64,000 bases of DNA from a virus (lineage: Duplodnaviria > Heunggongvirae > Uroviricota > Caudoviricetes): IMG/VR virus record IMGVR_UViG_2511231131_000001; one strand, given 5' to 3'. The notes beneath the pieces are model-generated. The model searched no databases. It was not told the origin of the DNA and saw nothing but the letters and a program-made list of their open reading frames with translations. Shown here piece by piece: positions 28,844-54,370 of this stretch; position 1 is the first letter of the stretch, and every line of letters begins with the position of its first letter. The position numbers were made by a program, and so were the translations under genes.

Positions 28844-29110
28844 ATGCTAATAGGCTATGTACGCATATAGACAAATGAACAAAACACAGCTATGCAGTGA
28901 AAAGCACTTGAAAGCGCAGGATGTGAGCTAATTTTTGCGAATAAGGCGAGCAGCAAAAAAGCTGGGCACCCTGGGTTAAAAAAGGTTCTGCGTATGCTTT
29001 CCAGAGGTGATACCCTAGTCTCGGACTAGGGACAACATTTCGAGAACAGTTTTCATTAGCGGCCAGCAGGCGCTAGATACATCGAATTGATGTGCCGCGC
29101 GATAAATGTA
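28844..29110 (+). pseudogene. Degraded Hin/Gin/Cin-family DNA invertase gene remnant, convergent with intact cin
   Basis: ATG 28844 gives MLIGYVRI-stop-TNEQNTAMQ-stop-KALESAGCELIF...GHPGLKKVLRMLSRGDTLV, recognisably invertase N-terminus with multiple stops and a deletion. Confidence 0.65.
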
Positions 29111-29151: not shown

Positions 29152-29724
29152 TTACAGCTCAGATTGAGTTTGGCGCTTCTCTACAGGATGATAACGATAA
29201 ATCGTCGATACACCGATATCGTAAATAATTGCCAACTGTTTCCTGCTGTAGCCATTTTCGATCAACCTCGCTATTTGCTCATGTTGTTCTTTTGTCAACT
29301 TCGGGCGACGTCCGCCAATGCGTCCCTGTTCGCGTGCAGCTGCCAGTCCGGCCAGTGTTCTCTCAACAATTAATTCACGTTCCATTTCTGCTAAAGCACC
29401 CATGACATGAAAAAAGAAACGCCCCATGGGTGTTGATGTGTCAATACTGTCTGTCAGACTACGGAAATTAACACCTTTTTCCCGCAACTCCTCTATAAGC
29501 GTGATAAGGTGTTTCATACTTCTGCCAAGCCTATCCAGCTTCCAGACAACCAGCGTATCTCCTTCTGATAACGTTCTGAGCAGCTTTTTCAAGCCTGGTC
29601 TGGCTGACTTTGTTCCGCTTATTTTATCTTCAAAAATCAGTTCACATCCTGCGCAGTTCAGTGCATTTCTTTGTAAATCTGTGTTTTGGTCATTTGTTGA
29701 CACACGAATGTAGCCAATTTGCAT
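29152..29724 (-). CDS. cin: Cin/Min-family serine DNA invertase
   Basis: 190 aa from MQIGYIRVSTNDQNTDLQRNAL...VVWKLDRLGRSMKHL...; closely resembles Hin/Gin/Cin; RBS AAAGAGG. Confidence 0.88.
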   Translation of the reverse strand: MQIGYIRVSTNDQNTDLQRNALNCAGCELIFEDKISGTKSARPGLKKLLRTLSEGDTLVVWKLDRLGRSMKHLITLIEELREKGVNFRSLTDSIDTSTPMGRFFFHVMGALAEMERELIVERTLAGLAAAREQGRIGGRRPKLTKEQHEQIARLIENGYSRKQLAIIYDIGVSTIYRYHPVEKRQTQSEL

Positions 29725-29795
29725 GAAAAACAACCTCTTTGTTTAGTTAAAAATACATCGTTGGTATAGGTAGGGATTAAGACTAAAACGTTGGT

Positions 29796-30263
29796 TTGGG
29801 GGAAGGCTCAGCATTGCCCGTTGGCGTGCCCGTTCCGTGGCCCTTAGAAACACCACCAACGGGCTGGCTGAAATGCAATGGTGCAGCATTTTCTTCTGAA
29901 AAGTATCCAAATCTGGCAAAGGTTTACCCCACCAATAAATTGCCGGATTTACGCGGTGAGTTTATTCGCGGCTGGGATGATGGGCGGGGGATTGACTCTG
30001 GCCGTAATTTATTATCTGCACAGAATGATGCAATTCAGAATATTGTTGGTTCTTTCGGGCGTACTCAGCTTTTTAGAGATGTACTTAGTTCAGGGCCATT
30101 TAGTCAACATGGTCAAGTATTATCTACAGGCCTAAAGGAAACGGAAATTATTGAGGGTTATGGCGCTTATAACTGGACATTCGACGCCTCTCGCTCAGTT
30201 CGTACAGCATCTGAAACCCGCCCACGCAACATTGCGTTTAATTACATCGTAAGGGCAGCATGA
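29796..30263 (+). CDS. Silent alternative tail-fibre C-terminal cassette 1
   Basis: Begins with conserved GEGSALPVGVPVPWP...GWLKCNGAAFS...LPDLRGEFIRGWDDGRG and ends RPRNIAFNYIVRAA, as does the C-terminus of expressed S; variable middle. Confidence 0.7.
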   Translation: MGEGSALPVGVPVPWPLETPPTGWLKCNGAAFSSEKYPNLAKVYPTNKLPDLRGEFIRGWDDGRGIDSGRNLLSAQNDAIQNIVGSFGRTQLFRDVLSSGPFSQHGQVLSTGLKETEIIEGYGAYNWTFDASRSVRTASETRPRNIAFNYIVRAA

Positions 30264-30273
30264 AAACGTTGGT

Positions 30274-30780
30274 TTGGGGGAAGGCTCAGCATTGCCTGTT
30301 GGCGTACCTGTTCCGTGGCCCTCAGCCACTCCGCCAACAGGCTGGCTAAAATGCAACGGAGCAGCTTTTTCTGCTGAAGAATACCCAGAACTGGCAAAGG
30401 CTTATCCCACCGATAAATTACCGGATTTACGCGGTGAGTTTATTCGCGGCTGGGATGACGGACGTGGTGTGGATGCGGGGAGAACAATATTATCCGCTCA
30501 AGGTGATGCCATACGTAATATCTATGGTGAGTTCAAGACTGTAAATACTGAAAATTATTCAATATGGGAATCAGTAGGCTCGTTTAAGGGGGCAGTGGTG
30601 CCTTTAAATCCCTCAACAAACAATAGTTATTTTTCCTTAGTCAGAAGTATGGTGACAGAAAGGACAGACGGCGCTGTTTACCCAAAAGTGATTGGCCTTG
30701 ATGCTTCAAAAATTGTTCCAACTGCAAACGAAAACCGCCCACGCAACATTGCGTTTAATTACATCGTAAGGGCAGCATGA
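30274..30780 (+). CDS. Silent alternative tail-fibre C-terminal cassette 2
   Basis: Same conserved ends, distinct variable core. Confidence 0.7.
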   Translation: MGEGSALPVGVPVPWPSATPPTGWLKCNGAAFSAEEYPELAKAYPTDKLPDLRGEFIRGWDDGRGVDAGRTILSAQGDAIRNIYGEFKTVNTENYSIWESVGSFKGAVVPLNPSTNNSYFSLVRSMVTERTDGAVYPKVIGLDASKIVPTANENRPRNIAFNYIVRAA

Positions 30781-30820
30781 AAACGTTGGTTTAGGGGAAG
30801 GATCGGCGCTGCCCGTTGGT

Positions 30821-31294
30821 GTGCCTGTTCCGTGGCCCTCAGCCACACCACCAACGGGGTGGCTGAAATGTAACGGAGCAGCATTTTCTTCTGAAAAGTA
30901 CCCAAATCTGGCAAAGGTTTACCCAACGTTAAAATTACCTGATTTACGCGGTGAGTTTATCCGTGGTTGGGATGATTCGAGAGGGATTGATACAGGGCGT
31001 TCATTGCTAAGTGGTCAGACTGCAACATTTATTCGTACAGCTTTGCAGGATTATTACGGTTACGATCTGAATACTAATGTCAAAGTAGGTATCGCTTATG
31101 CTACTGCTGATTCTGTTATAACTGTTGGAAACCCTGCTAATCCTAAAGCAGGAAATAATAGCGATTATGTTCCAGCATCATCAGATAACTCCATAACAGG
31201 CACTCAAAGGACGGCAGAGGATAATTTTACCGGGGCATGGATATCAATGCGCCCCCGCAACGTTGCTTTTAATTACATTGTAAGGGCCACATAA
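30821..31294 (+). CDS. Silent alternative tail-fibre C-terminal cassette 3
   Basis: Same conserved ends, distinct variable core. Confidence 0.7.
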   Translation: MPVPWPSATPPTGWLKCNGAAFSSEKYPNLAKVYPTLKLPDLRGEFIRGWDDSRGIDTGRSLLSGQTATFIRTALQDYYGYDLNTNVKVGIAYATADSVITVGNPANPKAGNNSDYVPASSDNSITGTQRTAEDNFTGAWISMRPRNVAFNYIVRAT

Positions 31295-31304
31295 AAACGT
31301 TGGT

Positions 31305-31763
31305 TTGGGGGAAGGCTCGGCACTGCCCGTTGGCGTGCCTGTTCCGTGGCCCTCAGCCACACCACCAACGGGGTGGCTGAAATGTAACGGAGCAGCATTT
31401 TCTTCTGAAAAGTACCCAAATCTGGCAAAGGTTTACCCAACGTTAAAATTACCTGATTTACGCGGTGAGTTTATCCGTGGTTGGGATGATGGGCGAGGTG
31501 TGGATGCGGGAAGGGGCATCTTAAGCATACAGGGGTGGTTAACAGGAAGTCATTATCATAATATTCGGTCATGGGACGCGTGGGATAACACGGTATTGGT
31601 GCCAAATGACAGAGGGGGGGATAGTCTGTTGTCGACAGATAACGCCGTCCAAGAAGGAGCGATTAATGGTAAATTTACCAGTCAATACAGAACGGAGTTA
31701 TCTGGGGGGAATGAAACCCGCCCACGTAACATTGCCTTCAATTATATTGTGAGAGCAGCATAA
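31305..31763 (+). CDS. Silent alternative tail-fibre C-terminal cassette 4 (followed by tail-fibre assembly gene)
   Basis: Same conserved ends; stop overlaps the start of the U-like gene. Confidence 0.7.
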   Translation: MGEGSALPVGVPVPWPSATPPTGWLKCNGAAFSSEKYPNLAKVYPTLKLPDLRGEFIRGWDDGRGVDAGRGILSIQGWLTGSHYHNIRSWDAWDNTVLVPNDRGGDSLLSTDNAVQEGAINGKFTSQYRTELSGGNETRPRNIAFNYIVRAA

Positions 31764-32374
31764 TGGATAATGCGATATTAAATAGCGAACTTATAGCCAT
31801 ACAGGCAGGAAACATTATCGTTTATAACTATGATGGTGGTAATCGGGAATATATTTCTGCATCAACTGAATATCTTGCTGTTGGCGTTGGTATTCCGGCA
31901 AATTCTTGTTTGGATGCTCCAGGCTCACATAAAGCAGGTTATGCGATTCTCCGTTCAGAGGATTTAAGTTCATGGGAGTATGTGCCAGATCATCGTGGCG
32001 AAACTGTCTATAGCATTGACACTGGGAATCCCGAAGAAATCACGGTGTTGGGTGACTATCCGGAAAATACAACCACTATCGCCCCGCTAACACCATACGA
32101 CAAATGGGATGGAGAGAAATGGGTGGTTGATACTGAGGCTCAACATAGTGCAGCTGTAGAGGCAGCAGAAACAAAACGTCAGTCATTGATTGATACTGCG
32201 ATGGCTTCCATTAGTCTGATTCAGTTGAAATTACAGGCTGGACGGAAGTTGACGCAGGCAGAAACCACACAGCTTAACTCCGTGCTAGATTATATAGACG
32301 AGCTGAACGCGATGGATTTAACCACGGCACCAGATCTCAACTGGCCTGAAAAACAACTTTCTGCAGCCAGTTGA
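31763..32374 (+). CDS. U: Tail fibre assembly protein (U/Tfa-like)
   Basis: 203 aa, MDNAILNSELIAIQAGNIIVYNYDG... typical of Tfa chaperones; coupled to cassette 4. Confidence 0.7.
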   Translation: MDNAILNSELIAIQAGNIIVYNYDGGNREYISASTEYLAVGVGIPANSCLDAPGSHKAGYAILRSEDLSSWEYVPDHRGETVYSIDTGNPEEITVLGDYPENTTTIAPLTPYDKWDGEKWVVDTEAQHSAAVEAAETKRQSLIDTAMASISLIQLKLQAGRKLTQAETTQLNSVLDYIDELNAMDLTTAPDLNWPEKQLSAAS

Positions 32375-32379
32375 TATAA

Positions 32380-34530
32380 TTAAGCCGCCCTCACAATATA
32401 ATTAAATGCAATATTACGAGGGCGGGTTTCTAAGCCAGCAGTACCTAAATTAGCTACGGACTGTTTATATGTTTTAAAAGTTCCATAATTAGGGGCTGGC
32501 AATCCTGCATCGCTTGTGTTCCCCCATCTGATAACTCCCGTATTACCACTAGTAGCCCATGCCTCGTCAAAGTAGAAATTAATTGAGCTGTCAGTTGCTA
32601 CGGTTGATTTTGACGGTAATCCGTGAGCATGATCCTCCGTTGCATATCCTTGCTCGCTTAAAATAGAGCGACCAGAGTCAATCCCTCGCCCATCATCCCA
32701 ACCACGGATAAACTCACCGCGTAAATCCGGTAATTTATTGATGGGATAAGCCTTTGCCAGTTTGGGATACATTTCAGAAGAAAATGCTGCGCCGTTACAT
32801 TTCAGCCACCCTGCTGGCGGTGTGGCTGAGGGCCACGGAACAGGCACACCAACGGGCAGCGCCGAGCCTTCTCCTAAACCAAGGTAATCAAGAACGCTCT
32901 GAATACTGGTCTTACCAAGAATGGCGCGTCCGACACTTGTCAATGCAGTTAACGCGGCACGATCAACACCTGTGAAATAAGGGAGTTTATCTGCTGCTGT
33001 AGCTAGTGCCGCTAGAGCAGTGAGCGTAGCGTCTGCCGCTTGCTTTCCATTAGCCAAATCATATGCAGCCTTGACAGCTTTCGGTGTGGCGGCCAGCACT
33101 TCGGACGTGCTATTAGTAGCACTGCTGAGTTGGACTATCCCTTTTTGAGCCGTGGTTGCATCCTGGGCTGTATACTTCCCGTTAGCCAGGTCATATGCTG
33201 CCTTGACTGCTTTCGGTGTGGCGGCCAGCACTTCGGACGTACTGTCAGTAGCACTACTGAGCTGAGTGATGCCTTTCGCTGTCAATGAAGCTGTTGGCAC
33301 ACCAGTGATCTGATTCCAGGGATGTGTATGACTGGATGGTGCCTTTCCGGCAGCTAGATCGTATGCAGCTTTAACCGCTTTTGGAGTTGCAGCTAATGTT
33401 TCAGAAGTGCTGTTGGTGTCGCTACTGAGCTGAACTATCCCTTTTTGTGTCGTGGTTGCATCCTGGGCTGTATACTTCCCGTTAGCCAGGTCATATGCAG
33501 CCTTGACAGCTTTCGGTGTGGCGGCCAGCACTTCAGACGTGCTGTTAGTGGCACTACTGAGCTGAGTGATGCCTTTCGCTGTCAATGAAGCTGTTGGCAC
33601 ACCAGTGATCTGATTCCAGGGATGTGTATGACTGGATGGTGCCTTTCCGGCTGCTAGATCGTATGCAGCTTTAACCGCTTTTGGAGTTGCAGCTAATGTT
33701 TCAGAAGTGCTGTTAGTGTCGCTACTGAGCTGAACTATCCCTTTTTGTGTCGTGGTTGCATCCTGGGCTGTATACTTCCCGTTAGCCAGGTCATATGCAG
33801 CCTTGACAGCTTTCGGTGTGGCGGCCAGCACTTCGGACGTACTGTTAGTGGCACTACTGAGCTGAACTAATCCCTTTTGCGTTGTGCTTGCATCCTGCGC
33901 CGTATACTTGCTTTTCGCCAGATCGTAGGCTTTTTTAACTGCCAGCGAACTCGCAGCAACATCACTTCTGGTACTGGTTACAGAGTCTGAAATATCAATG
34001 CCGATCGTGCGGTTGATACGCTCGGATGTATCAATCATCTCTTGAGTAATGGTAGATACGCCAGCAGGGATATTCACCGTACAAACCAGCAGTTCCCCAT
34101 CACCTAACTGATATGAATCGGTATAGGTTCTGGCAACAAATTCAGCTGCATGAATATGTGACGCGGTATTCACCTGATAGGTATCTTCTCCAAGAAGGTA
34201 TCTTCCCTTCAGCACAATTGCATATTTCTTGCCTGCGTTAAGTGCAAGAGAGATATCCTTACGATGCTGAATAGTTACCTGGTAGAATTCACCAATATCC
34301 ACTGACGCCGCGCCAGCGGTTTTATCTCCATCCACTGAGGTGATTAACAGGTTCATCCCACCGCCAGGCTTAGGCAAGAAACCAGCATAAAATCCCGGGT
34401 CAACAATTCCCCTGAATTTTCGGTTTAGAGCGGCTGACAGATATGGTTCGTGGTATTGCACATCAGCCACCAGAGCCAACGACTCGGGTGATGGGTAAGT
34501 AACCGATGTAACAACTGTAACGTCATTCAT
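32380..34530 (-). CDS. S: Tail fibre protein S (constant N-terminal part fused to currently expressed variable cassette 5)
   Basis: 716 aa from MNDVTVVTSVTYPSPESLALVADVQYHEPYL; repeated fibre motifs; C-terminal 166 aa homologous to the silent cassettes. Confidence 0.85.
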   Translation of the reverse strand: MNDVTVVTSVTYPSPESLALVADVQYHEPYLSAALNRKFRGIVDPGFYAGFLPKPGGGMNLLITSVDGDKTAGAASVDIGEFYQVTIQHRKDISLALNAGKKYAIVLKGRYLLGEDTYQVNTASHIHAAEFVARTYTDSYQLGDGELLVCTVNIPAGVSTITQEMIDTSERINRTIGIDISDSVTSTRSDVAASSLAVKKAYDLAKSKYTAQDASTTQKGLVQLSSATNSTSEVLAATPKAVKAAYDLANGKYTAQDATTTQKGIVQLSSDTNSTSETLAATPKAVKAAYDLAAGKAPSSHTHPWNQITGVPTASLTAKGITQLSSATNSTSEVLAATPKAVKAAYDLANGKYTAQDATTTQKGIVQLSSDTNSTSETLAATPKAVKAAYDLAAGKAPSSHTHPWNQITGVPTASLTAKGITQLSSATDSTSEVLAATPKAVKAAYDLANGKYTAQDATTAQKGIVQLSSATNSTSEVLAATPKAVKAAYDLANGKQAADATLTALAALATAADKLPYFTGVDRAALTALTSVGRAILGKTSIQSVLDYLGLGEGSALPVGVPVPWPSATPPAGWLKCNGAAFSSEMYPKLAKAYPINKLPDLRGEFIRGWDDGRGIDSGRSILSEQGYATEDHAHGLPSKSTVATDSSINFYFDEAWATSGNTGVIRWGNTSDAGLPAPNYGTFKTYKQSVANLGTAGLETRPRNIAFNYIVRAA
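33060..33900. repeat. Tandem direct repeats of 300-bp period inside S (about 100-aa protein repeat)
   Basis: 33181-33480 and 33481-33780 near-identical with partial copies flanking; encodes repeated YTAQDATTTQKGIVQLSS.TNSTSE.LAATPKAVKAAYDLA. Confidence 0.8.
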
Positions 34531-34541
34531 CAAGCATATCC

Positions 34542-34976
34542 TTATGCTGTAGTCGAGTTTATGGCCATAACTGCGGTATATGTTTTGCCCACATACAGCG
34601 AGTCTTCCTGGACACAAATAATGGCGATTGGCTTATTCTCGTTATCCAGAACAACCAGAGTGTTGAATGGGTAGTTTTTCCCTTCCTGCAACTGACTTTG
34701 ATCAAGGTCCATTCGGACAGTAATTATCCCGCCTGAGTAGGTTGGGACGAGGTTGATGGTGCAAAATTGACTGGTCAGTTCTGCCAGATCGAAAGCCTTT
34801 GGCAGTTCTCCAATCTCATAAGTGCCATCTCCTTTCTTAGTAACCAGTGAACTGGTACCGAAAACGGCCTTGCTGATTAAAAATCGAGAGCCTTTGTTAA
34901 TGGACGATTCAGCGCGCCGCTGATAGTAATAGTCCAACAACTGACTCTTATAGAGGTTTGTTGAGACGTCAGACAT
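34542..34976 (-). CDS. R: Tail fibre-associated protein R
   Basis: 144-aa ORF immediately upstream of S; by synteny with P1. Confidence 0.5.
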   Translation of the reverse strand: MSDVSTNLYKSQLLDYYYQRRAESSINKGSRFLISKAVFGTSSLVTKKGDGTYEIGELPKAFDLAELTSQFCTINLVPTYSGGIITVRMDLDQSQLQEGKNYPFNTLVVLDNENKPIAIICVQEDSLYVGKTYTAVMAINSTTA

Positions 34977-35017
34977 GATTTTCCCTAATCAATGTTGTGA
35001 AGCCTCATTGTAAGATA

Positions 35018-35027
35018 AGTAACTTGT
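35018..35027 (-). promoter_or_regulatory. Candidate late promoter element upstream of R-S (ACAAGTTACT, 9/10 to ACAAGTGACT, followed by TACAAT)
   Basis: Read on the minus strand. Confidence 0.3.
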
Positions 35028-35054: not shown

Positions 35055-35894
35055 TCACGCATCGCTATCCAACAGCAAATCATCTGCGCGGGTGCGATCA
35101 AACGTAGGCGTTGCTTTCACAATAGTGCCGCCCGGCGTTGCAGTGATCGGGGCGTTAATCGACGTAACTTCAGTAAGCGAAGTTGTATCCGAAGTTTCAA
35201 ACCAGCAGAATGCTTTTTCGGTATCAGAAATCTCATTCAAAGTGATCATGTCGGCCTGTTCATTTACAACAACCGACAAATAGAGCGTAAGCCCATCAAA
35301 CACTATATGCAGTGGCAGTAGAGGCTTTACGAACTGATTAAACTTTCTGAGAATTTCTTCTGTAATTGCGGACTGATCTATCGTTCCAGTAATACCCATT
35401 GTCCGGGCCAGGTCGTTTATGGGAATACTGATCATTCCTCTGGAAGTCAGAAACATCTCGCCGAATGTGCCGCCGGTGGTTTCCAGTGTGCTTTCTGGAA
35501 TCAGGACCGTGCCATAGGGATGACGTTCAAAGTCCACCGGAGCATATATGGGATCCCATAAAACCGATATACCGTTAAATTCGCGATAAATTGTCTGGTT
35601 TATAGGGCGTTCAGTACCCTTAAAATGGATCTCATCAAACCGCTGTTGTAACAACATCGGAACGGAAGATGAATTCGACGTTCTGATAGTAAAAAACTGG
35701 CCAAGTTCATTTGTCCTAGTCTCCAGATCCTCCTTGCTCATGGAGAAAATAGACTTCCGGTTGGTAATTCGCTCCAACCATGGGTCAACAAAGGTGTCCA
35801 TCATTGACTGAACCAAATCAGCCAATGATTTATAAAGTAATGACTTTTGCTTAGCTGATGTAAGCCGGTTATTAAACCAGGAACGCTGCATCAC
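35055..35894 (-). CDS. Baseplate/tail structural protein (P1 gene 16 position)
   Basis: 279-aa ORF overlapping the upstream gene stop. Confidence 0.45.
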   Translation of the reverse strand: MMQRSWFNNRLTSAKQKSLLYKSLADLVQSMMDTFVDPWLERITNRKSIFSMSKEDLETRTNELGQFFTIRTSNSSSVPMLLQQRFDEIHFKGTERPINQTIYREFNGISVLWDPIYAPVDFERHPYGTVLIPESTLETTGGTFGEMFLTSRGMISIPINDLARTMGITGTIDQSAITEEILRKFNQFVKPLLPLHIVFDGLTLYLSVVVNEQADMITLNEISDTEKAFCWFETSDTTSLTEVTSINAPITATPGGTIVKATPTFDRTRADDLLLDSDA

Positions 35895-37324
35895 TCCTCC
35901 TCATACGAAATATTAAAGGTGGAGTTTTCTGTATCCAGATAAACGAAATCGTAAAAGCCGTTGGACTCATTCCACTCGACAAATTCCAGATAAAAGTCGC
36001 GGAAATAACCCAGCGTTTCGATAAATGCCCAAACGTCTTTTTTCTTGATTAGGATGTACTTGCCGACACGGTTCGGATCAAAGAAAGTTGAGTCACGCCC
36101 AAATTTTGTTTCCAGTGCCGACTTCAGCTCATCAGTCACGTTCTCAATGGTCAGGCTTGCCGATATCCGCCCAGTGATGGTGATCTTAAAGGGGAGTTTT
36201 CTGACCTCTTTATACGAGAATTTCTTGTTCAACTCATTCGGCACCTTCTTAAAGGCAGCCAGGATCATTTCTTCAAGCTCTGACTGGCTTTTGTTTGGAT
36301 GCCATCCTGAAATAAATATCTTATTGATATTCCGAACATTATAAGCACCATCTAATTTCTCTTGCTGGCCTTCGCCCCATGCCTTTACCCAGGACAGTCC
36401 CGGGATGTTACGCACCAGAAAATACGTATAGTCCCCGCCCCATACGACCTGATCATCATAGGCAAGGTAATATTGTGCACGATTACGTGTGATCTCCGTT
36501 GTTTCGGCATCGGTACCTGCGGTTATGGGTGTCGTTGTCTTAACTGAAATCAAATTAGCTAAATTAGCCGCAGAATCGACAGGAGTCAGGTTTTGGCCAG
36601 CAACCAGGGTTATATCTCCGTTGGTGCACCATACCTTAAGTGTAATGGTCGAGCCTTCTGGCGGTATTTGCCCAATTAGCCCATCACCGAATCGAACCCC
36701 CAACTGCTCGGATGGCTTATAAAACTCAACGTAGACCTGGCTTTTACTACCGGCTAACCGGAACATAGTGCTGGAAGACCACTGCGTGGTCTTACCATCG
36801 GTCGTCACGAATACTTCCAGCTTACAGCAGACAGCAGTGAGAGCCTTTGATAACACGACTTCCAGAAATTCTTTGGCTGCCGTAACGGTATATGTCACCT
36901 CCTGGATTTCCAACTGTGCCACTTCTACCGTACCGGTGCCGTCAACCAACCTGCATACATCCATAGTCATGTAAGGGTACTGGTCGTCAGATATTAAAGG
37001 CATGTTTTTGGGGATTACCGCTGGGGCATCTTCACTTGTGGCGGTGATCTCAATCATCCCCGATGACGGTGTTGGCTTGGTACCAACGTAACTATTCGTT
37101 TCTGCCGCTGCCAGGATAGAGGAACGCCGCGTCGCGGTCGATATAAAGCCTTCAGCCAGCGCCGCATCGGCATACTGAAAGCACCTGTAGACAATCTGGG
37201 TAATAAACAATGTCAGCATCGAGACAAATTGAGAGCCGACAAACTTCGACCAGAATGAATCTTTCTCGACAAGCTCTTCAAACTCTGCACGAATACTGTC
37301 TTTAGTCGGTGTTGTTTTACTCAT
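35891..37324 (-). CDS. bplA: Baseplate protein (BplA position)
   Basis: 477-aa ORF; synteny. Confidence 0.45.
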   Translation of the reverse strand: MSKTTPTKDSIRAEFEELVEKDSFWSKFVGSQFVSMLTLFITQIVYRCFQYADAALAEGFISTATRRSSILAAAETNSYVGTKPTPSSGMIEITATSEDAPAVIPKNMPLISDDQYPYMTMDVCRLVDGTGTVEVAQLEIQEVTYTVTAAKEFLEVVLSKALTAVCCKLEVFVTTDGKTTQWSSSTMFRLAGSKSQVYVEFYKPSEQLGVRFGDGLIGQIPPEGSTITLKVWCTNGDITLVAGQNLTPVDSAANLANLISVKTTTPITAGTDAETTEITRNRAQYYLAYDDQVVWGGDYTYFLVRNIPGLSWVKAWGEGQQEKLDGAYNVRNINKIFISGWHPNKSQSELEEMILAAFKKVPNELNKKFSYKEVRKLPFKITITGRISASLTIENVTDELKSALETKFGRDSTFFDPNRVGKYILIKKKDVWAFIETLGYFRDFYLEFVEWNESNGFYDFVYLDTENSTFNISYEEE

Positions 37325-44814: not shown

Positions 44815-44974
44815 GTATTTTTAAGTCACGAATGCTATCTTTTCGCATCATATTGACCTTTTAATCGTTCAGGCTTATAGTTCCGCCGTCGTAGCAAATT
44901 CTGCGACCGGGTTTAGCAGCCTGAATGATTGTGCGGACAGCCGCAGATATCCGATATTGCGGTATTTTTGTGTC

Positions 44975-45060
44975 CGTAAAACCGCGTTACGCCCAAATTA
45001 TGGTGGGGCGTGATGGGGAGGCTTCGGCCTGCTGGTTTCACAATCGCCAGTCTGCTAACC
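44975..45060 (+). ncRNA. c4: Putative c4-like antisense RNA region of immI (approximate bounds)
   Basis: Located between the operator and icd; contains TCACAATC (45038-45045) complementary to GATTGTGA (45111-45118) just upstream of the icd RBS. Confidence 0.3.
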
Positions 45061-45128
45061 CCGTCACGTCCTGCCACCTGTTTAGCAGCGGGTAGCAGGT
45101 TGTTAAACCTGATTGTGAGGCCGTAACT

Positions 45129-48525: not shown

Positions 48526-48584
48526 TACAATCGTTGCGGGTGCTTGAGGCTATCTGCTTCAGGCATTACCCGAAAAGCAGATAG

Positions 48585-48655
48585 AAGAAAGCCCCAGATA
48601 ACATTACGCGTCCTGCAAGACGCTTAACATTAATCTGAGGCCATATCTATGCTTA
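48585..48655 (-). ncRNA. sok: Putative Sok-like antisense RNA region (approximate), opposite the mok translation initiation region
   Basis: Inferred from hok/sok family architecture; boundaries not determined from sequence. Confidence 0.25.
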
Positions 48656-48855
48656 GCATACGTAGATTAGCCTCTTACCGACCAAAAGGTCAAGGAGAAG
48701 CAGGCTATGAAGCAGCAAAAAGCGATGTTAATCGCTCTGATCGTCATCTGTTTAACCGTCATTGTGACGGCACTGGTAACGAGGAAAGACCTCTGCGAGG
48801 TACGAATCCGAACCGGCCAGACGGAGGTCACTGTCTTCACAGCCTACGAATCTGA
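48649..48855 (+). CDS. mok: Mok-like overlapping reading frame
   Basis: 68-aa ORF overlapping hok in another frame and ending near the hok stop. Confidence 0.5.
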   Translation: MLSIRRLASYRPKGQGEAGYEAAKSDVNRSDRHLFNRHCDGTGNEERPLRGTNPNRPDGGHCLHSLRI

Positions 48856-52591: not shown

Positions 52592-54298
52592 TTACTCAGA
52601 GTCACCGGCATCAATCGTGTCGCCGCTAATGAAGTTAAGCCCGCCTTTTTTGGCCATTGTCAGCGTTACACGAGTGAAGTAATCAGCGCCGTTGCGTGGG
52701 TGCATATCGTTGATAGCCGAACCCCACAGCGTGGTACGGTTGACCAGCGCCGGAGTGGTCGGATGCTGGAACGGGATGGCCGGGACAGCATCACCAGTCA
52801 CGAAGCCTGCTTTACCCGGATTTTCATCACGGACGTAGCACAGCACATCCATCGAGCTGAACTGAATGTTCTCTGTCGTTAAGTTCTTACAAATACCAGC
52901 AGGTACTTCGTACACTTTCACGTTACCGAACAGGGTACCGATGTAGTGAACATACGGAGTCTGGATATAGTCTTCGGCTGGCTGGAAGAAATCCTTCGGC
53001 AACTGTTTGAAGAAAGATGCTGCATCAGCACCAGCAAACATCCCCATCGCACCAGAAGATTTAACGCGCTCAATAATGTCGCGATATACAGTCTGGAATT
53101 TGCCACGAATGATGGTTGCCCATACATCAAAGGACTGGTTAACCGGCAGAGCGATGTCAAAGGTGTCGGTCGCAAGAGTACGCCAGATCATGATGCGAAG
53201 ACGCAGCATATCCTGTTCATGAGACAGGTATTCCTTCAGGGTGCGGAACTGTAGGGAACCCAGGTCCAGACCAAATTCACGCTGTGCTTCATACGCCGCC
53301 TGTACCGTGTGCTCAGCCGCGATAACGAACTGGCTTGGGAACAGGGTGTATTTCTTCATTTCGTGGTTGATCAGCGGGATCAGCTCAGGAGCGGCTTCAA
53401 TATTGATTTCCGTCTCAATTGCGATCTCAGTGCCTTTATCCGGCGCTTTGGAGAACGACAGGGCAATCTGACCAATGTTGTAGTTCAGAGAGCAGGTAAC
53501 AGTGATTTGCTCACCAGCAGCATTAGTAAACGAGTGAAGTAGGCTGCCGGAACCGTTATCAACAACAGACTTAATACGGTTAACGTAGATATTAGTGCGA
53601 CCTTTTCGGATTGGTACATTCTGGCCTTCGAAGTCTTCCATCTTGAAGGTTGCGGTTTTGCTGGTGCCATCGGAGCTTGCCACCAGCACATAGCGGCGGC
53701 GTAACTGGCTGTACACACCGACGGATTGCATGTCCAGAACATCACCAGCAGCATAAGAACCAAAAGAGGAACCTGCCACGTTAAAGACTTCATAGATGTC
53801 GGACTGGTCACGCGTAACCGGAATGAAGGTACACGCATCAGCGGTAGCTGCCCCCAACTGAACAGGCAGGATCATCGCGAGGAATAAAGGCAGACGCATA
53901 ACACCGTCAGAAACGCTCATCATCTCTGCTGCGACGGATTCCAGCATCGCTTTATTAGTGGCATCCATGCTATTGCGGGTGGACTCAATCAGGCAGTTTT
54001 CCAGCGTCTGGTGGCAGGAGGCCAGAATTTCCGGACGCGGCATAGATTTATGTGCTGCGGCGTAGTCAGCCAGTGCACTTGCCCACGCTGTAGCGATTTG
54101 AGCGGTGGCATTATCAGAGATACCCGCAAAAACCGGGTCTTTACGTGCAGCTTCAAGGATAGATGCGGCACGCGCGGCATCATCTTTAATGAATTGGTTA
54201 TCAGTACCGAACTGCGCAGTGCTTGCCCAGCCAAGCACAGCTTTAGAGCGTTTTGCGATATCTGCAATACGATTCTGGTATTCGCGTAAGTTACTCAA
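52592..54298 (-). CDS. Putative major capsid protein (P1 gene 23 position)
   Basis: TTG start at 54298 with RBS AGGAAG 6 nt upstream (ORF track uses TTG 54319); adjacent to parS as in P1. Confidence 0.5.
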   Translation of the reverse strand: MSNLREYQNRIADIAKRSKAVLGWASTAQFGTDNQFIKDDAARAASILEAARKDPVFAGISDNATAQIATAWASALADYAAAHKSMPRPEILASCHQTLENCLIESTRNSMDATNKAMLESVAAEMMSVSDGVMRLPLFLAMILPVQLGAATADACTFIPVTRDQSDIYEVFNVAGSSFGSYAAGDVLDMQSVGVYSQLRRRYVLVASSDGTSKTATFKMEDFEGQNVPIRKGRTNIYVNRIKSVVDNGSGSLLHSFTNAAGEQITVTCSLNYNIGQIALSFSKAPDKGTEIAIETEINIEAAPELIPLINHEMKKYTLFPSQFVIAAEHTVQAAYEAQREFGLDLGSLQFRTLKEYLSHEQDMLRLRIMIWRTLATDTFDIALPVNQSFDVWATIIRGKFQTVYRDIIERVKSSGAMGMFAGADAASFFKQLPKDFFQPAEDYIQTPYVHYIGTLFGNVKVYEVPAGICKNLTTENIQFSSMDVLCYVRDENPGKAGFVTGDAVPAIPFQHPTTPALVNRTTLWGSAINDMHPRNGADYFTRVTLTMAKKGGLNFISGDTIDAGDSE

Positions 54299-54360
54299 TT
54301 TACTCTTCCTTAAACACAAGGCACTTGTGTGAATCCCTTTTCGGAAGAGATTTTATTGAA

Positions 54361-54370
54361 AGTCACTTGT
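54361..54370 (-). promoter_or_regulatory. Candidate late promoter for the capsid operon (ACAAGTGACT followed by TAAAAT, minus strand)
   Basis: Same motif as upstream of prt and mat. Confidence 0.35.

Follow-up and report, generated by a model that had tools for sequence, protein, structure and literature searches.

The 64,000-nt stretch of viral DNA analysed here (IMGVR_UViG_2511231131_000001; hereafter the window) carries a tail-fibre operon in which gene S ends in one of five exchangeable 3′ cassettes. We read this locus, with a probability of roughly 0.9, as a multiple DNA inversion system of the Min (p15B) type, set in the tail-fibre operon of a P1-like plasmid prophage. The window was examined by open reading frame (ORF) listing, repeat search, Pfam domain assignment and direct reading of the sequence. 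Five crossover sites delimit four segments, of which three hold a single cassette and one is double-ended, [c4-tfa><c0], with the tail-fibre assembly gene tfa between two cassettes that face each other. An earlier note on this DNA had proposed a multi-site p15B Min type rather than a two-state C segment, and the five sites, four segments and five in-frame tips bear this out. Loci of this kind and their components are already known, and the present one is typical of the phage family.

Gene S runs on the − strand from the ATG at 34530 to the stop at 32380 (716 aa; the exact protein is AEZ43580.1/WP_001000782.1) and is convergent with the + strand modules. Its constant part, Sc (32883–34530, −), is joined to cassette c0 (32380–32880, −; HAH motif), the current 3′ end of S and the 166-aa module in which the earlier note had S end (GLGEGSALPVG...RPRNIAFNYIVRAA). 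Four silent cassettes stand head to tail on the opposite strand, as that note had also described: c1 (29793–30263, +; 156 aa, DAIQNI-type core), c2 (30271–30780, +; 169 aa), c3 (30788–31294, +; 168 aa, C-terminal VRAT) and c4 (31302–31763, +; 153 aa, HYH motif). The five modules share their ends and differ in their cores, with between-module identities of 85–93% over the N-terminal 75 aa, 75–100% over the C-terminal 16 aa and 16–35% in between. At the nucleotide level, long inverted repeats (I1–I4; 217–249 nt, 80–86% complementary) pair the S cassette with each silent cassette.

The Pfam Phage Tail Collar domain is found in 5/5 cassettes, and c4 has in addition a weak S_tail_recep_bd match. 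Cassette c0 matches the tip of T4 gp37 (PDB entry 2XGF; E = 1e-17) in the N-terminal collar part, the HxH motif and the extreme C-terminus NIAFNYIVR, and it also matches short-tail-fibre structures. We take the 2XGF fold to be one in which the N- and C-terminal stretches build a collar and the middle forms the receptor-binding end. Such a fold would explain why the cassettes have conserved ends and a variable core, and why the crossover site lies at the first collar codons. By analogy, each cassette would thus be a gp37-like collar-plus-tip domain, with the conserved ends forming the collar and the variable core forming the receptor-binding tip.

Upstream of S lies gene R (34542–34976, −), the first in the operon, which matches P1 R as annotated in NC_005856; R and the first ~770 nt of S are 96–97% identical to P1/P7. 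The P1 late promoter LPs (AAGTTACTTATCTTACAAT; 35007–35025, −) precedes R and exactly matches the LPs feature annotated in P1. Because of this exact conservation of LPs, the Sc–c0 fusion is taken as the expressed form. A search of the window for the late-promoter pattern returned only LPs, LPdar and two one-mismatch matches near 54.3 kb, and thus no P1-type late promoter on the + strand near the cassettes or tfa. Matches resembling sigma-70 promoters are fewer in the region than in shuffled sequence. Both results make it reasonable to call the silent cassettes promoterless, as the earlier note did.

The pattern AAAACGTTGGTTTRGGGGAAGG occurs exactly four times on the + strand in 64 kb (29785, 30263, 30780 and 31294), each time directly before a module, and shuffled sequence gives a chance expectation of 0.01 matches. 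These occurrences mark site 0 (29779–29804, +; AAGACTAAAACG-TT-GGTTTGGGGGAA), site 1 (30257–30282, +; AGCATGAAAACG-TT-GGTTTGGGGGAA), site 2 (30774–30799, +; AGCATGAAAACG-TT-GGTTTAGGGGAA) and site 3 (31288–31313, +; CACATAAAAACG-TT-GGTTTGGGGGAA). The fifth site is inverted and lies at the Sc/c0 junction (32869–32894, −; sense strand TTCTTGATTACC-TT-GGTTTAGGAGAA; core 32881–32882). It departs from the pattern at four positions; three of these lie in the left half-site, which belongs to Sc. A site before each module with an inverted copy at the Sc junction had been claimed before, and it is found here as four exact copies and one inverted copy with four differences.

All five sites have the form ...AAAAC(G/C)-TT-GGTTT(A/G)GG(A/G)GAA in a 12+2+12 layout. 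The right half-site, GGTTT(A/G)GG(A/G)GAA, is well conserved and encodes the first cassette residues, G-L-G-E. The left half-site is whatever precedes the core: the end of the previous cassette (the c1 3′ end at site 1), the flank on the invertase side, which forms the fixed boundary at site 0, or Sc, which forms the fixed boundary at the junction. All five cassettes translate in frame with Sc across the core. The form of the sites agrees with the consensus table in PMC4134206. Read in the gene-sense direction, 5/5 sites have TT as their core dinucleotide, four in direct and one in inverted orientation. Serine invertases need an identical asymmetric core, with one site inverted relative to the others, so the exchange requirements of such an enzyme are present in the window. 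The earlier note had asked for symmetry of the central dinucleotide; the shared TT in the right orientation answers that check, although what matters is an identical asymmetric core and not symmetry.

Enzymes of the Din family (Hin, Gin, Cin, Pin and Min) are ~190 aa long, with an N-terminal resolvase domain, a serine near residue 9–10 and a C-terminal helix–turn–helix. Their sites are 26 bp long and consist of two imperfect 12-bp half-sites around a 2-bp core common to all partners. The reaction is Fis-dependent, requires supercoiling, is biased towards inversion and uses a cis enhancer in the 5′ part of the invertase gene. The window encodes a serine DNA invertase with the protein features of this family next to the array (29152–29724, −; 190 aa; Resolvase E = 2e-51, HTH_7 E = 4e-15; Ser9 in the motif YIRVSTNDQ), and the gene is transcribed away from the invertible region. 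The earlier note had assigned the inversion to Cin. A serine invertase is indeed present, but it is not Cin, since only 138/190 aa (73%) are identical to P1 Cin. Its gene is identical at 573/573 nt to those of several P1-like plasmids with 6–9 such sites (L001, L002 and L004 of the related loci described below), one of which is pMCR_SCKP-LL83. The exact protein is UniRef Q05517 and is found on at least 1000 contigs. The 5-kb inversion region of pMCR_SCKP-LL83 has been reported as 99% identical, at 92% coverage, to p15B min (PMC5786510), and the enzyme of a related plasmid was published as 98.5% identical to Min X62121. By its sequence, the window enzyme is of the Min type.

A probable recombinational enhancer of the Fis-binding type lies within the invertase gene (29635–29706, −; gene nt 19–90), ~120 bp from the nearest crossover site. 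Of its 72 nt, 58 are identical to the P1 enhancer (NC_005856 31678–31749), which occupies the same position in its gene. From this homology to the P1 cin enhancer we infer dependence on the enhancer and on Fis. Arrays with as many as nine sites stably keep sites in direct repeat.

Evidence for switching comes from relatives. We mapped the sites and cassettes of 13 loci (L001–L013) with the same or a near-identical invertase. Their arrays comprise 2–9 sites, and the intact cassettes fall into at least 11 families. Those of the 13 loci with an intact assembly all follow one layout: + cassettes lie next to the invertase, − cassettes next to Sc, and [c4-tfa><c0], in one orientation or the other, between them. 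The half-site structure accounts for this common layout. The left half of site 0 bounds the array likewise in 12 related loci mapped (L012 and L013 were mapped without half-site readout), and across the mapped loci cassettes of seven different families adjoin the Sc half-site. When all inversions between inverted sites were enumerated breadth-first, 2, 3, 4, 5, 6 and 9 sites yielded 2, 4, 12, 48, 240 and 80,640 arrangements, respectively. The five sites of the window thus correspond to 48 isomers with five S C-termini. At least five variants had been proposed; there are exactly five S tips, distributed over 48 DNA isomers.

Two Klebsiella pneumoniae plasmids from the same hospital, NZ_LR890206.1 and NZ_LR890724.1, are both 95,815 bp long and encode the same invertase protein. 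All of their site-to-site segments (7/7) match with 0 mismatches, four of them being inverted and relocated, so that the two arrays are perfect isomers; their left flanks show 0 mismatches in 3,056 nt. This natural pair is the strongest evidence that loci of this type switch. The bases that distinguish the half-sites are exchanged between the two plasmids, and the crossover therefore maps within AAAACG-TT-GGTTT. Three of the window sites are letter-identical to sites of this pair. A search with synthetic joints found single-piece full-length matches, annotated as tail-fibre protein, for Sc–c1 (NZ_CP157116.1), Sc–c2 (NZ_CP080083.1, 99.4% identity) and Sc–c3 (NZ_CP044439.1 and NZ_CP027133.1). 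Sc–c4, with tfa directly after it, occurs in L007, and Sc–c0 is also among the natural fusions, so all five window cassettes are found fused to Sc somewhere. In a different prophage, Phi2 of Escherichia coli EC958, long reads (PacBio) have recorded inversion between the near-identical sites ...ATTACCTT GGTTTAGGAGAA and ...AAACGTT GGTTTGGGGGAA (PMC4134206).

The following sequence of events is proposed. LPs would drive R and S, with S made up of Sc, ending at the 26-bp crossover site, and one exchangeable 3′ cassette. Min would bring the Sc site together with any site that is inverted relative to it, probably aided by the enhancer within its own gene. Both sites would be cut at the TT core and rejoined after rotation, so that the intervening DNA is inverted and another cassette is fused in frame to Sc. 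Successive inversions could generate the 48 arrangements and five S proteins, presumably with five receptor specificities, within one lysogen population. The switch in the window plasmid is probably active, to judge by the sequence of its enzyme, sites and cassettes.

Several points weigh against this proposal. The window shows a single static arrangement. The identity of the enzyme to Min was established through a published proxy and not through the p15B sequence itself, and the enhancer was assigned by its 81% identity alone. A sigma-70 scan found no convincing promoter upstream of the invertase gene, so that its expression is assumed; for the invertase and tfa together, the scan gave 5 matches, compared with 10 expected by chance. 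The remaining points concern tfa (31763–32374, +; 203 aa; Caudo_TAP E = 3e-30), the sole copy in the locus, which follows only cassette 4, as the earlier note observed. The c4 stop overlaps the tfa start (TAATG), which indicates translational linkage. Wherever its position was read from annotation tables, tfa lies between c4 and c0, and the c4/c0 pair frames the segment in the 13 mapped loci. Gene tfa is co-oriented with c1–c4, so any first-step inversion places it in sense downstream of S. It stands tail to tail with c0 in one segment, and for this reason c0 is never co-transcribed with it from the late promoter. The enumeration shows tfa antisense to the late operon in 24/48 isomers, including the present one, a state confined to arrangements in which its segment turns the c0 side towards S. 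Assembly of c0, and of c1–c3 in the tfa-antisense states, is thus hard to account for. Possibly a dedicated chaperone of the Tfa type is dispensable for the folding of four of the five gp37-like tips, or [c4-tfa><c0] acts through its orientation as a hidden second switch for fibre-competent bursts; we put this pair of readings forward as speculative and rather unlikely. Neither was found in the literature consulted, which covered p15B through citing papers.

Other explanations of the locus were weighed against the same evidence. The array might have been built by Min and no longer switch, for example because the invertase is unexpressed, with only the Sc–c0 fibre being made. The single arrangement in the window and the missing promoter-like site upstream of the invertase gene fit such a frozen relic, and the decayed second invertase gene nearby shows that decay does happen at this locus. 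However, the invertase ORF is intact and nucleotide-identical to the gene of demonstrably switching plasmids, the five sites are intact and include the three shared with the proven isomer pair, and all five cassettes are intact ORFs, so we consider a relic very unlikely. Less probable still is shuffling by RecA-dependent homologous recombination, acting on the conserved 5′ parts of the cassettes (~230 bp), with the short sites being incidental. The inverted repeats I1–I4 fit this reading. Furthermore, the 5′ parts are mosaic between plasmids and show ~tenfold the synonymous diversity of the cores, and homologous exchange or gene conversion therefore acts on them over evolutionary time. Exchange within heads of ~225 nt should nevertheless leave chimeras, whereas the isomer pair is identical from core to core without a chimeric 5′ part, and its half-sites are exchanged precisely at the core. 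In addition, the sites are far more conserved than the surrounding coding sequence, and a dedicated invertase adjoins the array.

That each of the four modules on the + strand is a small 'phage tail protein' gene in its own right is hardly credible. RefSeq does list separate coding sequences (CDSs), and c1, c2 and c4 carry a possible TTG start (29796, 30274 and 31305, respectively). This TTG lies within the crossover site, though, and c3 has TTA there, with its ORF called from a GTG at 30821. No promoter was found before the array, each family is fused to Sc in some plasmid, and the modules are without a shaft for attachment to the baseplate. Two further candidates were rejected outright. A tyrosine-recombinase shufflon is ruled out by domain content, the enzyme being a serine recombinase, and a P1-type two-state C segment by the five sites, the single tfa, the Collar-type tips and the opposite orientation of the invertase. 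The Min-type inversion system remains the best explanation of the locus.

Partial matches to the 5.6-kb region occur in 568 plasmid records and in 1,798 of 5,426 complete E. coli genomes, where they lie on chromosomes as well as plasmids. No record in the plasmid set or the 5,426 E. coli genomes covers ≥80% of the query in one piece, as expected for a locus that shuffles. The exact proteins of c1, c2, c4 and tfa were counted on 292, 115, 176 and 997 contigs, respectively, and the cores of c0 and c3 occur in 103 and 73 plasmid records, respectively. Cassette c0 is intact in 11/13 loci, and the two exceptions are in assemblies with several frameshifts. The cassette repertoire had been singled out for special comparison; it is not special, since each of the five families is also present in other P1-like plasmids. 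In recent surveys of P1-like phage-plasmids the region figures only as 'variable', and a cassette catalogue would therefore be useful but not new in kind. Chromosomal prophages of E. coli (for example NC_013941.1 2176047–2179175 and NZ_CP148405.1 3227385–3231094) are 87–89% identical to the region overall and are annotated with a recombinase, 3–5 'phage tail protein' cassettes and a single tfa. Such multi-cassette arrays are therefore not confined to P1-like plasmids.

The locus would allow one lysogen clone to release particles with five receptor-binding tips, as a host-range hedge of the plasmid prophage; the five host ranges presumably differ. Which isomer an assembly of such a plasmid shows is arbitrary. 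With at least 11 families in 13 loci, the shared pool of cassettes could serve as a ready library of interchangeable tips for P1-based delivery vectors.

In the RefSeq annotation of relatives, the silent cassettes are called as free-standing 'phage tail protein' CDSs. They are gene ends and not genes, and the same caution about annotating such cassettes was made in PMC4134206. Within a cassette family, synonymous diversity in the 5′ 225 nt is ~tenfold above that of the core (for c0, 0.14 over the whole and 0.009 in the core). The PLETPP and PSATPP motifs in the cassette 5′ parts (for example 29793–30017, and in L001–L013) are freely combined with differing cores. These patterns suggest that, in addition to site-specific inversion, cassette heads undergo gene conversion with one another. 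The ratio of nonsynonymous to synonymous polymorphism (pN/pS), calculated on the cassette cores for selection on c0, had low power, with ~10 synonymous differences summed over pairs. In Sc, 300-nt tandem repeats (33043–34074), with copies 88%, 71% and 60% identical to the first, encode seven Phage_fiber_2 repeats. The S genes of relatives differ in length, and the shaft probably varies in length by repeat number.

Beside the working invertase gene, the 5′ fragment of a second, P1 cin-like invertase gene has decayed (28844–29020, +). Local alignment to the P1 cin 5′ end covers the first ~59 codons, with in-frame stops (MLIGYVRI*TNEQNTAMQ*KALESAGCELIF...). The fragment lies back to back with the working gene and adjoins its 3′ end. 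The cin-type promoter region upstream of it is partly kept, with the −10 element TAAAAT changed to TAAAAC and the spacer 1 nt shorter; because of this damage, a cin-type promoter reading rightwards into the array is unsupported.

Elsewhere in the window, a baseplate-protein homologue (35891–37324, −) is labelled 'bleomycin hydrolase' in RefSeq relatives (L002, L003 and L010–L013), which looks like a propagated misannotation. Two divergent one-mismatch matches to the late-promoter pattern (AAGTTACTT-N4-TANNNT) lie 60 bp apart (54288–54306, + and 54350–54368, −), and may be a pair of late promoters. Rfam identifies a sok antitoxin RNA of the hok/sok type (48538–48712, +; 115 bits) and the P1 immunity C4 antisense RNA with its a1b1 target (44875–44927 and 44996–45081, +). 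No tRNA genes were found in the 64 kb.

We compared the window locus with known systems for tail-fibre and adhesin tips. T4 gp37 has one fixed tip and dedicated chaperones (gp38 and gp57A), and undergoes no inversion. In the R64 shufflon, overlapping invertible segments choose the C-terminus of one adhesin, PilV, and inversion is strongly favoured over deletion; the recombinase is the tyrosine recombinase Rci, acting at sfx sites, and the product forms the tip of a conjugative pilus. The logic is the same as in the window, by analogy and not by homology. Closer are the two-site switches of EC958 Phi2 and e14 Pin, with near-identical sites, Phage_fibre_2 repeats and an invertible Collar-domain end (PMC4134206). 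They differ from the window in having two sites and mirror-image alleles, and in belonging to integrated and not plasmid prophages. Chromosomal prophages with an 87–89% identical invertase and several cassettes are also common in E. coli genomes.

The Cin system of P1/P7 shares with the window the position between the lyd genes and R–S, an identical LPs, an invertase of the serine family and, probably, an enhancer in the 5′ part of its gene. In P1, however, two cix sites flank one 4.2-kb segment with two states (Sv–U and Sv′–U′), each with its own U gene, whereas the window has five sites, T4 gp37/Collar-type tips and one tfa. Furthermore, P1 cin is transcribed towards its segment and has cixL at the 3′ end of the gene, and the window invertase is oriented in the opposite direction.

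The closest counterpart is the Min system of p15B from E. coli 15T−, whose principle and architecture were reportedly worked out by Sandmeier, Iida, Arber and colleagues in 1990–1992. It is said to have six sites, six gene variants and 240 isomers, with the invertase facing away from the array and a truncated second invertase gene beside it. The window shares with p15B this arrangement of the two invertase genes, a P1-like backbone that includes LPs, R and an Sc rich in repeats, the crossover-site sequence and the in-frame alternative 3′ parts on one constant part. Our enumeration for six sites also equals the 240 isomers attributed to p15B. The two differ in number, with five sites, five tips and 48 isomers in the window compared with six sites and 240 isomers, and c2 is absent from the p15B-like proxy L001. 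Since relatives range from two to nine sites, the number of sites varies within the family and does not mark a new design.

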